Below, piece by piece: positions 2,676 through 7,054 of a DNA stretch of 64,000 bases. Where the stretch lies: positions 2,816,001 through 2,880,000 of the forward strand of contig CBDBCY010000004.1 in the NCBI GenBank assembly GCA_965203555.1, in the 5' to 3' direction. Both the position numbers and the translations under genes were made by a program. Under the pieces are notes generated by a model that worked only from the letters and a program-made list of their open reading frames with translations, made no database searches and was not told the origin of the DNA. The first letter of the stretch is position 1, and each line of letters opens with the position of its first letter. Source of the DNA: Acidimicrobiia bacterium (GTDB lineage: Bacteria > Actinomycetota > Acidimicrobiia > Spongiisociales > ZC4RG35).

Positions 2676-3781
2676 GTGAAGATCACCGCCGTTCGCGCCT
2701 TCCAGGTCGACCTTCCCCTGGTTGAGGGTCGCTACACGTGGTCGGACGGGCGGTATGTGGAAGTCTTCGATGACACGGTGGTCGAGATCCAGACCGATGC
2801 CGGGATTTCAGGGTATGCCGAGAGTTGCCCGCTCGGCTCCGCCTATCTGCCGGCCCATGCCCTGGGGGTGCGGGCGGGTCTGGCGGAACTGGCGCCGCAT
2901 CTGATCGGCAGGGATCCCCGGGATCTGAACGAGATCAACCGGGCCATGGACGCCGCCCTGCTCGGCCATCCTCATGCGAAGGCGCCGGTCGACATCGCTT
3001 GCTGGGACATTGCGGGCAAGGCCACCGGGCTTCCCCTGTACACCCTGTTGGGAGGTCGAGCCCAGCAGGATGTGGCGCTCTACCGGGCCATATCACAGCT
3101 GCCGCCCGACGAGATGGCGGCCAATGTCGCCAAGTACCGGGCGGAGGGTTACGGTCGATTCCAATTGAAGGTGGGAGGGGACCCCAACGACGACATAGCC
3201 CGCATCCGCGCCGCCCGGCGGATCCTTTCAGACGAAGATTGCTGGTGGCCGACGCCAACACCGGTTGGACGCGACATGAAGCCGCCCGGGTGGTCAGCGC
3301 GGTGGAGGATCTGGACGTGTACATCGAGCAACCCTGCACCACCTTCGCCGAGTGCCTCTCCATCCGCAGGCGTACCTCCCGGCCGTTCGTGCTTGACGAG
3401 ACCATCGACGGATTGGAGACTTTGATCAGGGGATTGGCGGAGGATGCGATGGATGTGATCAACCTCAAGATCTCCAAGGTGGGTGGACTGACCCGGGCCC
3501 GGCTGATACGGGACGTCTGTGTGTGGTCGGGAATACCGATGATCATCGAGGATCCGTGGGGTTCGGACATCACCACCGCCGCCATTGCTCATCTGGCCCA
3601 ATCGACGCCCGATGAGTTCACTTTCGCCGGGACCGATTTCAATTCCTACGTGACCGTCTCCACCGCCGCCGGCGCTCCCCGGCGGGAGTTGGGAAGGATG
3701 CGAGCCGCGGACCGACCCGGCCTGGGCGTCGAGCCGCGTTTCGAGGTACTGGGCACTCCGGTGTTGGAAGTCTCCGGTTGA
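2676..3781 (+). pseudogene. Enolase-superfamily mandelate racemase/MLE protein (cis-3-hydroxy-L-proline dehydratase / hydroxyproline betaine epimerase-like), frameshifted near 3240
   Basis: N-terminal half in frame 2463 ('FQLKVGG'), C-terminal half in frame 2825 ('ADANTGW','IEQPC','LDE','NLKISKVGG'); one missing base at gat-tgc. Confidence 0.8.
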
Positions 3782-3788
3782 AAATCCG

Positions 3789-3808
3789 CCCGGCCCTCTC
3801 GGGCCGGG
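3789..3808 (+). terminator. GC-rich hairpin after the enolase-family gene
   Basis: cccggccc-tctc-gggccggg, 8 bp perfect stem, no U-tract. Confidence 0.5.
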
Positions 3809-3901
3809 GGCGTCAGGCCCGAGGCGCAGCGATGTTGTCCGATGCCTGTCGGTTCCGTGACGACAGAGTTGTGAAAAAACCTGAGGTCAGAGGGTTGATC
3901 C

Positions 3902-3923
3902 TGTCACAGCAGTGTCCCATACT
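3902..3923 (+). promoter_or_regulatory. PafBC/RecA-NDp-like promoter motif with no obvious downstream CDS
   Basis: TGTCAC-N10-CATACT, same spacing as the motif at 4342-4363. Confidence 0.35.
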
Positions 3924-4341
3924 GGCAGAAGCCAATCACCGAGGCGGTTCGTCCCGGCGTCGTTCGGACCGCGCCATGGGATCATATTGTTTGTCACAGC
4001 GAGCACTGCTCAGATCCGGCATGACGCTCCGTTCCGGGCTGGGCGGAATTCGTGCGACCACGGCATGGAGGAGGCGGGGGAGGGAGTCCGGAGGGGCAAG
4101 TGGCAGAGCGCTTTTCACAGGATAGGGAAGGAAAATCGCGACTTGCCGTTGATCAAGGTCTGGTGAAATCAGGATGCCCGACTCAGGTTTTCCACTCATT
4201 GTCATATCCAAGGGAGGGGATGCTTCGACATCACTCAGGCTTCTAGGGCGTGTCCACATTACGTAGGGTGCCGCTGATGAGGTGGATGTTGTGGAGAGTT
4301 TTAGTGTTTGTTTTCACAACTTAGTGATATGCACGATGTTT

Positions 4342-4363
4342 TGTCACACCCCCTTTGCATACT
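4342..4363 (+). promoter_or_regulatory. PafBC/RecA-NDp-like DNA-damage promoter, leaderless
   Basis: tTGTCAC-N10-CATACT ending 6 nt before ATG 4370; resembles TGTCGG-N10-TANNNT. Confidence 0.5.
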
Positions 4364-4369
4364 GTAAGC

Positions 4370-5590
4370 ATGAAACAAGCAGTCAACCGTCGGCGGTCCG
4401 CCAACCTGGCCAAGTTGCTGGCGCCCACCATGCCGGTGATGGAGGCGTCGGTTGAGGAACTGAAACAGCGTATACAGTCCACCATCCGCGTCCAGAACCA
4501 AGTGGCGGCGGTCCGCGCCCAGGCAGTGTCGGAGTTGCGCCGCCGCCAGGGAACGGAGAAGGTGGAGACGATTTTGCGGGAGGACGGTCTGTTGGGCCGT
4601 CGGAAGGCTCGGTCGGAGGTGGAGACCGCCCGGGGGTTGGAGGAACTGCCCAAAACCCGGGAAGGGTTACGCAAGGGAGAGATCTCTGCTGACAACGCGC
4701 GTATCCTGGCGGGCGCCAACCAGAGGGGAACCATCATCGAGGATGAATTGTTGGACGGTGCCCGTTCCCAGTCTCCTGACAAGTTCGCGGCTACGGTACG
4801 CAAACACGAACAGGCCCGTGCCCAAGATGATGGTGTGTCGAGGTTGGAGCATCAGCGTTCCCGCCGGTTCGCGAAGATCACCACTGACCAAGATGACGGG
4901 ATGACCGTGTTGTATGGGCGGTTTGACCCGGTTACGGGTGCCCGGGTGGAGACGGCGGTGTCTCACATGATGAAACAACTATGGCACAAGGAGGACCCCA
5001 GGGATCGGGCTACTGCGGGTCAGCGGATGGCCGACGCCCTGGCCGAACTGGTCACTCGGGAAGGAGAGGATGGTGGTTCCCAGGGCGTGAGGTTGTTGTT
5101 GATCGCCGATTACGACGCGGTCAGTGGACAGTTGGGCAACCCTCGCTTGGAGAACGGAACCCCCCTGCCCGCCCAGACGCTACGCGAGTTGGCGTGCGAC
5201 GCTCAGGTCCTCCCCGCGATGTTCTCGGGTTCGTCGGTGCCGTTGGATTTGGGTAGGGCGCGGCGAACAGCGAGCGGTTCCCAGCGGGCCGCGCTCGTCG
5301 CCCGGGACAAACACTGCATCGGTTGCGGCGCCAAAGCTGCTTGGTGTCAGGCCCACCACATCGTCCACTGGGCCGATCAGGGTCCCACGAACCTGGACAA
5401 CATGTGTCTTCTGTGCAGCAGATGCCACCACAAAGTCCACGACAATGACTGGCAGGTTGAACGCACTACAACCGGTGCCTACCGGCTCCGCAAACCACCA
5501 ACCGACCGGCCACCACCCCGCCGAACCCCCAACCGCTACCGCCGCCCACCCACCCGCAAACGCCGACGTCCCATGCATCAAAGAAAATGA
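4370..5590 (+). CDS. DUF222 (13E12 repeat family) HNH endonuclease
   Basis: 'QRMADAL', 'RELACDA', 'LDLGRARR', 'RDKHCIGC...CQAHHIVHW..GPTNLDNMCLLCSRCHHKVH'; Arg/Pro-rich tail. Confidence 0.9.
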   Translation: MKQAVNRRRSANLAKLLAPTMPVMEASVEELKQRIQSTIRVQNQVAAVRAQAVSELRRRQGTEKVETILREDGLLGRRKARSEVETARGLEELPKTREGLRKGEISADNARILAGANQRGTIIEDELLDGARSQSPDKFAATVRKHEQARAQDDGVSRLEHQRSRRFAKITTDQDDGMTVLYGRFDPVTGARVETAVSHMMKQLWHKEDPRDRATAGQRMADALAELVTREGEDGGSQGVRLLLIADYDAVSGQLGNPRLENGTPLPAQTLRELACDAQVLPAMFSGSSVPLDLGRARRTASGSQRAALVARDKHCIGCGAKAAWCQAHHIVHWADQGPTNLDNMCLLCSRCHHKVHDNDWQVERTTTGAYRLRKPPTDRPPPRRTPNRYRRPPTRKRRRPMHQRK

Positions 5591-5705
5591 AACAGCCCGC
5601 CACCCAAAGCGTGAACATGCCCTAACAGGGTTGAGTACCCTGCTAACCCGGTGGCCGCTCATCAAATGCCCATGAGTGACGAGTGTGACAGCCAAAAGGG
5701 GGCTT

Positions 5706-6250
5706 ATGAAGCGATACGAAGTCACGCCATTGCCGAAGTACGATCCCGTGATCGGTCGATGGCTGTGGGTCATGGAAGAGATGCGAAAGCGCACTTTGCG
5801 CCTGGTTGGGGGTCTGGACGACCGCCCCTCGACTGGGAAGGGCCTGATGGTCAAGAGAACGCCATCGGAACACTTCTCTACACATCACCGAAGTGGAGAT
5901 GGCCTGGCGTTGGGGAGAGATGAAAGGTCACTCTCGAAATGCCGCCGGAGATAGCAAGAGATTTCCCGCTCGAGCCGCGGGACCTGCAGACAGGCCGGCT
6001 CTCTCGGATCCGAGGTGTCCCCCTCGCTGAACACCTTCGGCGGCTGGAGCGCAGTAGGGAGGTGTTTCTGAAGGAAGTGAAGAGATTTTCTCCAAGCTTT
6101 GGTATACCCCGCGGCCGGACCCCGAACACGGGAGATTCGAGGCCACCCCGGAGTGGATGCTGTTTCACCTCATTGCCTCATGAGGCAGAACACTACGAGC
6201 AGATATATGGATCTTCGCTTCGGAGCAGGGATCGTGGGGACTCTTGACCT
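5706..6250 (+). pseudogene. DinB/YfiT-like protein, multiply frameshifted
   Basis: Pieces in different frames: 'IGRWLWVMEEMRKRTLRLVGGL', 'NAIGTLLY/HITEVE', 'LAEHLRRLERSRE', 'TPEWMLFHL', 'HEAEHYEQI'. Confidence 0.65.
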
Positions 6251-6325
6251 GGAAAGTGAGGGGCCACATACTGACGGAGTGGCTCCCCAGGGGCCAGAGG
6301 TCGGGAAAAGGTTTCTGAGGTGCAG

Positions 6326-7054
6326 TTACCGACTATCTACCAACGCGTCCAGGGCTATCCCGATCATCCGGCCCACCGCCTCTCTCACCACCTCCCGGTG
6401 GGGGTCGTAGCCGGTCATCTCCTCGTCCCGTTGCGCCAGAGGATTCCCGTCCACGGTCAGGATCGCCCCGGTTTCAACTCCGGCCAGCCCGGCCAGGACG
6501 AACAGCACAGCACATTCCATCTCCACCGCTTTCACTCCCGTCTTCTGCCAAAGGGCCAGGTCGGAACCGAGTATGTCATGTGAATAGAAAACGTCGCTGG
6601 TCAGGGTCAGGCCCTCATGGATGTCGACCCGGTCTCGGATGGCCCTGCGAAATGCAGCGATCACATCCGGCGAAGCCAAAGCAGGATATCCGTCCGGGAC
6701 AATTCGGGAGGTGAAACCCTCATCACGCACCGCCCCGGTGACAATCACCAAGTGGCCGTCGGTGACATTGTCCTGCATCCCTCCGCAAGTTCCCGCTCGG
6801 ATCATCCGTCGGACCCCCGCCTTCAGCAATTCCTCGAAGCACACCGCCGCTCCGGCCGCGCCCACGCCATGGGACACGACTCCCACTTCAACACCGCGGT
6901 GTCTGCCCGCCATGGTGAGGTACTCACGGTGGTTTCCCAGTTGGACGGGTTCGTCAAGAAAACCTGCTGCCCGCCGGGCGCGATCGGGATCGCCCACCAC
7001 CAGCGCCAGTTCGGGAATGTCCCCGGAGTCAACATTCAATACGGGAAGCAGCAT
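6326..7054 (-). CDS. Nucleoside phosphorylase (PNP/UDP family)
   Basis: 'GDPDRA', 'HREY', 'SHGVG', 'IRAGTCGG', 'AVRDEG', 'AVEME'. Confidence 0.9.
   Translation of the reverse strand: MLLPVLNVDSGDIPELALVVGDPDRARRAAGFLDEPVQLGNHREYLTMAGRHRGVEVGVVSHGVGAAGAAVCFEELLKAGVRRMIRAGTCGGMQDNVTDGHLVIVTGAVRDEGFTSRIVPDGYPALASPDVIAAFRRAIRDRVDIHEGLTLTSDVFYSHDILGSDLALWQKTGVKAVEMECAVLFVLAGLAGVETGAILTVDGNPLAQRDEEMTGYDPHREVVREAVGRMIGIALDALVDSR

Follow-up and report, generated by a model that had tools for sequence, protein, structure and literature searches.

The first mobile insertion cassette (MIC) to be described was MIC231 from Bacillus cereus, and IS231 belongs to the IS4 family of insertion sequences (IS). 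The original description of REP13E12 is reportedly that of Gordon et al. in 1999. Members of the IS427 group make target duplications of 2-4 bp (ISfinder). A MIC is a cassette that is bracketed by inverted repeats, contains no transposase and usually shows a target duplication, and MIC231 is cited as a case in which IS231A mobilises the cassette in trans (PMC3913671, excerpts). Two overlapping open reading frames (ORFs) with a frameshift motif are described for the IS427 group within the IS5 family (PMC3281130, excerpts). DUF222/REP13E12 genes are described as multicopy, with a function undefined as late as 2026 and with frequent gene conversion (PMC13061034, excerpts), and they are listed among repetitive elements (PMC10589994, excerpts); the consulted excerpts of the DUF222 and REP13E12 literature contain no report of IS-type ends around DUF222 genes. 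Here, we describe a DUF222-HNH gene between IS-type ends in a 64,000-nucleotide stretch, hereafter the window, of an Acidimicrobiia bacterium (GCA_965203555.1; genome G000, contig C4, positions 2816001-2880000, in a 3.4-Mb assembly with four contigs). With a probability of roughly 85%, the element is a MIC-type cassette that derives from an IS5-family element and was transposed, with TA duplication, by the transposase of that element acting in trans.

The window element measures 1377 bp from one terminal inverted repeat (TIR) to the other, and its TIR arms are complementary at 10/12 positions (Table 1). The DUF222-HNH ORF begins with an ATG at 4370 and stops at 5588-5590, and the right TIR ends 32 bp past the stop. 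All this can be read off the sequence, as an earlier sequence-only reading had done. That reading also gave the element a cargo of nothing but a promoter and the DUF222-HNH gene. The gene is indeed the only long sense-frame ORF, and none of the NF033580 transposase-profile matches of the genome falls inside the window copy; the promoter fared less well, with no match in a sigma-70 consensus scan of window 4150-5750. Nevertheless, a block of approximately 70 bp upstream of the gene, ending in CATACT 5 nt before the ATG, is nearly invariant in 24/24 copies, across subfamilies, and on this ground it may be the promoter or operator of a leaderless mRNA.

The same reading had conceded that so short a TIR might be due to chance. 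When the 250 bp on either side of the ORF were shuffled 100 times, inverted 12-mer pairs matching at 10 or more positions occurred at a mean of 2.1 pairs, compared with 5 observed, and a pair of at least 10/12 with TA on both outer sides arose in 1/100 shuffles. Because inverted pairs are common in shuffled material and even the TA-flanked configuration turned up once, the window sequence taken alone is suggestive, a hint of a TIR-bounded element and no proof. The question of chance is settled by the family, in which repeat boundaries fall on the TIRs and one copy (c04) has perfect ends.

BLAST searches found 24 DUF222-HNH copies with at least 1,090 aligned bases in G000, the window copy included, at 74-89% identity, plus fragments. 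Sixteen of them (c00-c15), 82-89% identical to the window copy, constitute subfamily 1. When a TIR-like end was defined as at most 4/14 mismatches to TAGGGCGTGTTCAC, both ends were present in nine of the 16 and only the left in six, and c01 had neither. The right end begins 20 bp past the stop in eight of the nine two-ended copies and 235 bp past it in c02. In a megablast self-comparison, repeat boundaries coincided with the TIRs at window 4247-5625, C4:1177286-1178762, C4:2751562-2753033 and C4:1591521-1592986, and no shared flanks beyond the TIRs were seen among the nine two-ended copies. Copy c04 (C4:1177286-1178761) carries the perfect TAGGGCGTGTTCAC 14-mer at both ends (14/14), and the TIRs of the copies agree at a mean pairwise 86% over 14 bp, a level compatible both with selection on the ends and with its absence. 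The expectation that other copies share the boundaries of the window element thus holds for these nine and not for eight G000 copies without the ends, which are considered below.

Most copies are of a long form, in which some 100 bp separate the left arm from the 5' block in addition to what the window copy, a short form, has there. Within this extra segment (e.g. L038:560-650), a T-rich run comes after the perfect hairpin CACCGG-CGC-CCGGTG. The hairpin segment is common to the TIR-less copy c18, RNA contigs of run X7 reach into the extra segment, and the hairpin may be a terminator that insulates the DUF222 promoter from upstream. Additionally, a solitary right cassette end occurs at G000:C4:2813202-2813215, 2.8 kb before the window start. 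It consists of the TIR and the last DUF222 codons, with an unrelated 490-aa ORF upstream, and is a truncated seventeenth copy.

Comparison with other genomes, cited here by number, revealed element-free forms of several loci. At the c04 site, G003 reads ...gtccaagtTAgtcgaacc... where G000 reads ...gtctaagtTA[GGGCG..element..CGCCC]TAgtcgaacc; at greater length, ...ctagtcgtgtccaagtTAgtcgaaccgctcttaacc... stands against ...ctagtcgtgtctaagtTA[GGGCGTG...CACGCCC]TAgtcgaaccgctcttaacc... The c04 locus in G003 is an exact empty site with one TA. The c07 site in G007 reads ...aaaacTAccctgtccaccc..., a single TA followed by ccctgtccaccc; its right flank aligns from the TA, and its left flank has diverged. 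At the c11 site, the right flank of G003 resumes at TAgcttctg, and the left junction differs over approximately 18 bp. Copies c14 and c15 were rejected as empty-site cases: relatives have syntenic intervals without the element, and the junctions cannot be aligned. For the window locus, coral-metagenome run X4 yielded a 197-nt contig (depth 16.4) that covers 4113-4244 and then continues at 5629 for 37 nt. Its junction letters are GTCAA, and five letters are the count that an exact TA empty site leaves. The single-TA empty sites that had been anticipated therefore exist for c04 in G003 and c07 in G007, whereas at the locus of the window copy the X4 contig skips the copy and has the right length but reads TG.

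A partner IS with the same TIRs was found in the same genome. Thirty-seven sites lie within 2 mismatches of TAGGGCGTGTTCAC, and their element-like pairs are the ends of DUF222 elements, save one inverted pair that bounds 817 bp at C4:3127550-3128366 with TA on both sides. On the minus strand of this IS are two overlapping frames, both matching the NCBIfam profile NF033580 ('IS5 family transposase'): the C-terminal frame covers profile positions 101-255 (134.6 bits vs a cut-off of 110), and the N-terminal frame covers positions 2-113 (99.3 bits) and contains one TGA, at codon 19 of the transposase. Their overlap falls on the A6G slippery motif CTAAAAAAGGG, at which they are presumably joined by frameshifting. 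This IS, one end of which is abutted by another IS, is the sole NF033580 match above cut-off in G000.

Within the genus, 9/17 genomes, G000 included, had a match. Seven full-length copies of the IS (817-819 bp) were identified, one in G000, one in G008, three in G009 (with equal scores) and two in G003, all with TA on both sides and with the ends TAGGGCGTGTTCACACTATTGG... and ...CCCTACGTAGTGTGAACACGCCCTA. G009 and one of the G003 copies have intact transposase frames. The G008 copy (L048, G008:C82:11792-15610) has one continuous fused frame of 257 aa that needs no frameshift; likewise, one natural IS427-group mutant is described as having a single continuous transposase frame (PMC3281130, excerpts). 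Both the IS5-type nature of the ends and a transposase with the same TIRs, proposed beforehand from the letters of the window, were borne out by these copies.

Some further features of the IS were recorded. The transposase stop is absent inside the IS and is completed by the target TA and the next base (L040, L048, L049, L050, L055, L056 and L059); this base is G or A in 7/7 full-length copies, giving TAG or TAA. The three G009 copies and cassette c04 all sit at TA followed by GTC. Other multicopy IS families (2297-, 1960-, 1825- and 1230-bp repeats, and others) were rejected as partners, as none had these ends. A 1.82-kb IS family of seven copies with ends CTAGGAGGCTGCTGA (e.g. G000:C4:3125744-3127560 and 1178836-1180659) has one copy abutting the IS5-family element at TA and another 74 bp from c04, and it may prefer CTAG/TAG targets. 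A tandem array at G000:C4:324816-325061 (seven units, period 39 bp, GGGCGTGTTCGCCCTCTTC in every unit) surfaced through near-matches to the TIR; it is unrelated to the element.

The cassette ends are derived from this IS. Window 4244-4281 matches the reverse complement of the G009 IS 3' end at 31/38 positions, ungapped, and the reverse complement of window 5592-5624 matches the G009 IS 5' end at 26/33 positions. The left ends of the DUF222 elements match IS positions 766-817, extending to 713-817 in copy c13. Moreover, between the DUF222 stop and the right TIR, copy c02 (1688 bp) still encodes part of the transposase on the opposite strand, namely residues 31-76 (52% identity, E 6e-11), and copy c12 has kept a remnant of residues 53-78 (E 6e-5). 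Longer cassettes retain pieces of both transposase-gene ends. The DUF222 unit therefore stands, inverted, in place of the catalytic core of the transposase, and the short forms, the window copy included, have lost the remnants by deletion. By tblastn, significant transposase remnants were limited to c02, c12 and the G008 copy L064. In L064 (G008:C47:29800-32900), a miniature IS of approximately 108 bp that has kept its two TIRs and part of the transposase (residues 206-257) occupies the stretch ~10-120 bp past the DUF222 stop, a second, independent association of the IS with a DUF222 gene. The conserved motif GTTTTSCCACTCTTG, found ~47-82 bp past the stop in TIR-less copies, was rejected as a transposase remnant (E 5-8 for the c19 and c21 tails by tblastn).

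Taken together, these data fit the following course of events. The parent would have been an 817-bp IS427-like element of the IS5 family, with two overlapping transposase frames and the A6G slippery site, in which a complete DUF222-HNH unit in the opposite orientation came to replace the catalytic middle of the transposase gene, leaving ~40-50 bp of one IS end and ~33 bp of the other, the 12-bp TIRs included. The DDE transposase of the IS would then recognise these ends in trans, insert the cassette at TA and duplicate the TA, and such insertions would have produced the 16-copy subfamily in G000, with the DUF222-HNH protein as cargo of an IS-type movement. A non-autonomous element mobilised in trans, the view already taken in the sequence-only reading, remains the best explanation because an IS with the same TIRs exists, the cassette has no transposase of its own, boundaries are shared and empty sites were found. 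The family shows no sign of recent movement, since the partner is defective and the closest pair has a synonymous divergence (dS) of 0.20. For the same reasons, a nonsense codon in the only IS copy and the lack of any pair below dS 0.20, the cassette family is probably now immobile in G000. Common boundaries, arms homologous to the IS, transposase remnants in longer cassettes and TA duplication were directly seen in the sequences, and the part of the IS transposase as the moving enzyme is what we deduce from them.

Several observations weigh against this explanation. Mobilisation in trans is deduced, no transposition event having been observed, and the G000 partner is defective while no subfamily pair lies below dS 0.20. 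CA, TG or CC replaces TA on one side of several copies. The flanks of the window element (3781-4243 and 5625-6335) have no homologue in 16 genomes of the same genus, and its empty allele is represented by one short contig with 37 nt on one side and 90% likeness; contig joints at less than 95% likeness can stem from other organisms. The junction letters GTCAA of this contig show 3 differences from the expected AACAG, with TG instead of TA as the junction dinucleotide; the change of 5628 from G to A, which is among the three, recurs as a variant in X3 and X4 contigs. Furthermore, eight G000 copies (c16-c23) have no TIRs and have spread or persisted regardless, and bracketing TIRs were likewise lacking in 10/10 copies examined in five sister species (G008 with six copies; G014, G013, G005 and G010 with one apiece). 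Finally, 20/24 intact ORFs and a ratio of nonsynonymous to synonymous substitution rates (dN/dS) of approximately 0.19 are unlike what irrelevant cargo would show.

The TIR-less copies have a history of their own. In the group formed by c17 and c19-c22, homology starts at the 5' block TTTAGTGTTTG... and ends approximately 400 bp past the stop, and no inverted repeat was found at the ends of the group. The c19 locus (L020, G000:C4:730272-734598) is syntenic with the G008 copy L066, with flanks 80-86% identical and DUF222 units 70.6% identical. Similarly, the c21 locus (L100, G000:C4:832000-836800) is colinear with another G008 copy (L068/L112), and related arrangements occur in G014 and G001. 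Overall, syntenic DUF222 units of G000 and G008 share approximately 71-73% DNA identity, below the 80-86% of their flanks. At the protein level, c19 and c21 are 93% identical to each other (dS 0.23) and 74-75% identical to their positional counterparts (dS 1.0-1.6), and paralogues at different loci of one genome reach 92-99% identity (dS 0.08-0.29). In a FastTree phylogeny (no support values), the copies clustered by genome; two rows, L075 and L076, had very long branches, and for these the wrong ORF was probably picked. These comparisons indicate that the TIR-less copies undergo concerted evolution or repeated replacement in place, which echoes the REP13E12 loci of M. tuberculosis, described as gene-conversion hotspots (PMC13061034, excerpts). 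TIR-framed capture is not the general route of DUF222 spread. Because the other subfamilies lack the ends, occupy conserved positions and are homogenised within genomes, the evidence points to gene conversion as the main dynamic of the DUF222 family.

The protein belongs to a very large family, with 17,837 representatives at 50% identity at E up to 0.001 and 9,682 at E up to 1e-10, under record names that include 'MAG: DUF222 domain-containing protein [Actinomycetia bacterium]'. Pfam assigned DUF222 (PF02720, E 4.5e-24) to residues 41-313 and HNH (PF01844, E 1e-7) to residues 316-358, and C316, C319, H329, H330, C349, H353 and H357, a zinc-finger HNH motif, were invariant in 56 aligned homologues. 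Relatives were found in 1/50,697 phage records (29.5% identity) and in 8/72,556 plasmid records (all partial and below 60% identity); PHROGs gave HNH-domain matches only, and PADLOC had no family match for the protein. Among the 24 copies, 20 ORFs are intact, c01 and c10 are frameshifted, and c13 is split by an IS; c12, with a different start, was dropped by the intact-ORF filter. For 12 intact subfamily-1 copies (66 pairs), the median dN/dS was 0.19 (range 0.14-0.26), and dS had a median of 0.40 and a minimum of 0.20; over all 190 pairs, dN/dS was 0.18. As such a dN/dS is unexpected for irrelevant cargo, the protein may matter to the element, and selection keeps it intact for a function of its own, probably in sequence-specific DNA binding and cutting.

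The AlphaFold model was confident, its mean predicted local distance difference test score being 88 overall and 90 over residues 1-300. Foldseek found nothing in the PDB at E 0.001 or better. With VIA-align, the top matches of residues 44-152 were DNA-binding domains of the ParB superfamily, in both whole-protein and domain-only searches. The best was ParB 6s6h_B (Z 8.0-8.1, root-mean-square deviation 2.8-2.9, 99 residues aligned), a Z that is middling for helical models, followed by KorB (Z 6.5-7.1), Spo0J (Z 6.8-6.9), SopB (5.2) and VirB (Z 4.9-5.1). Residues 300-371 matched the HNH domains of IscB, McrA, Cap5 and Cas9 (Z 5-7.5). The predicted resemblance of the N-terminal DUF222 domain to a ParB-type DNA-binding domain is kept as a lead because the Z values are middling; as such, it offers a first concrete hypothesis for the role of the DUF222 domain.

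These properties give some room to a different account, doubtful but the strongest of the alternatives, in which the DUF222-HNH protein itself aids spread or retention by cutting alleles that lack the element or have diverged, with homing-like gene conversion as the result and the IS ends as an added vehicle. A homing or retention role of the nuclease, compared with TnpB and IscB, had been raised in the sequence-only reading, and the hints for it are indirect. Purifying selection on many paralogues would suit such a protein, as would the homogenisation of paralogues within genomes against approximately 75% protein identity at syntenic positions, the REP13E12 hotspots, the placement of the DUF222 unit exactly where the transposase core had been and the predicted likeness of its N-terminal domain to ParB/KorB DNA-binding domains. 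However, concerted evolution is possible without a dedicated nuclease, the structural matches are middling (Z at most 8.1), and a TA duplication with TIR-exact boundaries is the mark of DDE transposition, not of homing. HNH homing endonuclease genes spread when an empty allele is cut and repaired and have no TIRs and no target duplication, and the cassette has both. A bolder form, somewhat less likely again, treats these genes as selfish site-specific nuclease genes whose ParB-like domain, if the model is right, would direct HNH cleavage to loci that are related or empty and would then receive the gene through repair. If true, this would explain the genome-wise homogenisation of copies at conserved positions, the REP13E12 hotspots and the replacement of the core of an IS5 transposase gene by a DUF222 unit; the window element would be a parasite of two layers, with a nuclease gene of the homing type inside a hijacked transposon shell, and selection on the nuclease, not on the host, would keep 20/24 ORFs intact.

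It is far less probable that segmental duplication or recombination multiplied the copies, the TIRs being passive relics of an IS that had received a DUF222 gene. The age of the copies (dS 0.20 or more), the dead partner and the gene conversion evident in the family would be compatible with this, but homology between copies stops at the TIRs, and element-free forms with one TA and with junctions at the TIR ends exist for three sister-copy loci and the window locus. Least probable of all is a nuclease that, like IscB or TnpB, would be guided by an RNA from an element end: residues 303-364 are closest to the IscB HNH (PDB 9nvu, E 0.0035, VIA Z 7.5), and run X7 has RNA contigs on parts of the ORF at 90-97% likeness, but the IscB profile NF040563 scored 30.6 bits against a cut-off of 175 over residues 305-363 only, within the HNH segment, the Pfam scan found DUF222 and HNH and no RuvC or other IscB domain, Rfam matched nothing in window 3000-7000 with E up to 1 or in five other copies at gathering scores, the non-coding ends of the window copy extend just 32 bp past the stop and 126 bp before the start, and the predicted N-terminal fold matches DNA-binding domains. 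Transposition of the cassette in trans by the IS5-family transposase therefore remains preferred over all of these.

Table 1. Parts of the DUF222-HNH cassette in the window (positions counted from the first nucleotide of the window)
Feature	Position	Strand	Basis
Left TA target copy	4244..4245	.	Sequence; c04 empty site in G003; X4 contig
Left TIR GGGCGTGTCCAC, family consensus GGGCGTGTTCAC	4246..4257	+	12-mer common with the 817-bp IS5-family element
Left arm, IS end 3' of the transposase gene (IRR, right inverted repeat, side), inverted relative to the DUF222 gene	4258..4298	+	
Conserved 5' block of the native DUF222 unit, TTTTAGTGTTTGTTTTCACAACTT ... TTTTGTCACAC ... CATACT	4299..4369	+	
DUF222-HNH gene, 406 aa plus stop	4370..5590	+	Pfam; AlphaFold model; invariant residues
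Right arm, IS end 5' of the transposase gene (IRL, left inverted repeat, side)	5591..5610	+	
Right TIR, GTGAACATGCCC on the + strand	5611..5622	-	Sequence
Right TA target copy	5623..5624	.	Sequence; c04 empty site; X4 contig

The cassette of the window lies between two conserved neighbour genes, an enolase-like gene (MR_MLE_C) ending at 3781 and a phosphorylase gene (PNP_UDP_1) on the minus strand from 6326. The interval between these neighbours measures 370 bp in G009, 2.2 kb in G007 and approximately 10 kb in G003. Both flanks of the cassette are single-copy in G000, and the ORFs in 3781-4243 and 5625-6335 had no Pfam match. The labels of public sequencing runs with parts of the stretch name metagenomes of sponge, coral and marine origin. 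In run X1, contigs identical to the window break off within the repeat, and an X3 contig joins window 3972 to 4297.

In addition, window 3849-3990 is a repeat of approximately 140 bp with about eight further copies in the genome, and Rfam gave no match to it in the scan of window 3000-7000. The repeat carries TGTCACA...CATACTG, a motif pair as in the DUF222 5' block, and it lies ~180-260 bp upstream of a DUF222 gene in G001:C124, G010:C29, G014:C46, G013:C3 and G013:C1. This may point to a preferred neighbourhood or to a regulatory site that is shared.

DUF222-HNH genes are very widespread and are multicopy in many actinobacteria, and the present locus documents one testable route by which they spread, namely, capture between IS5 ends followed by TA-duplicating transposition to 16 sites. 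Moreover, a clean trans-mobilisation experiment is within reach, as the ends are defined and sister species carry intact transposases. The gene shares the PF02720 plus PF01844 architecture of REP13E12, the '13E12 repeat family' of mycobacteria, and one plasmid homologue is annotated as '13E12 repeat family protein', whereas protein identity to actinobacterial plasmid homologues is only approximately 27-33%. As in the IscB/TnpB systems (OMEGA, obligate mobile element-guided activity), a transposon carries a nuclease gene that is not needed for strand transfer, and the HNH is broadly of the same type; unlike those systems, the DUF222-HNH protein has no RuvC domain and no detected RNA, its N-terminal domain is predicted to be ParB-like, and its vehicle is a DDE-type transposon with TIRs and TA duplication, not an IS200/605 element. 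The partner IS, a candidate member of the IS427-like group, resembles this group in its length of approximately 0.8 kb, its two overlapping ORFs with a frameshift motif, its DDE transposase and its TA duplication; it differs in that the transposase frame extends right up to the IS terminus. The closest likeness is to the MICs, with which the window element shares paired IS-type inverted repeats, a passenger gene, the lack of an internal transposase, a target duplication and a matching autonomous IS. Unlike MIC231, it would owe its movement, which we infer to have occurred in trans, to a parent of the IS5 family rather than to IS231, and it also differs in that it is present at 16 copies in one genome and its passenger is a nuclease gene that itself belongs to a multicopy, selfish-looking family.

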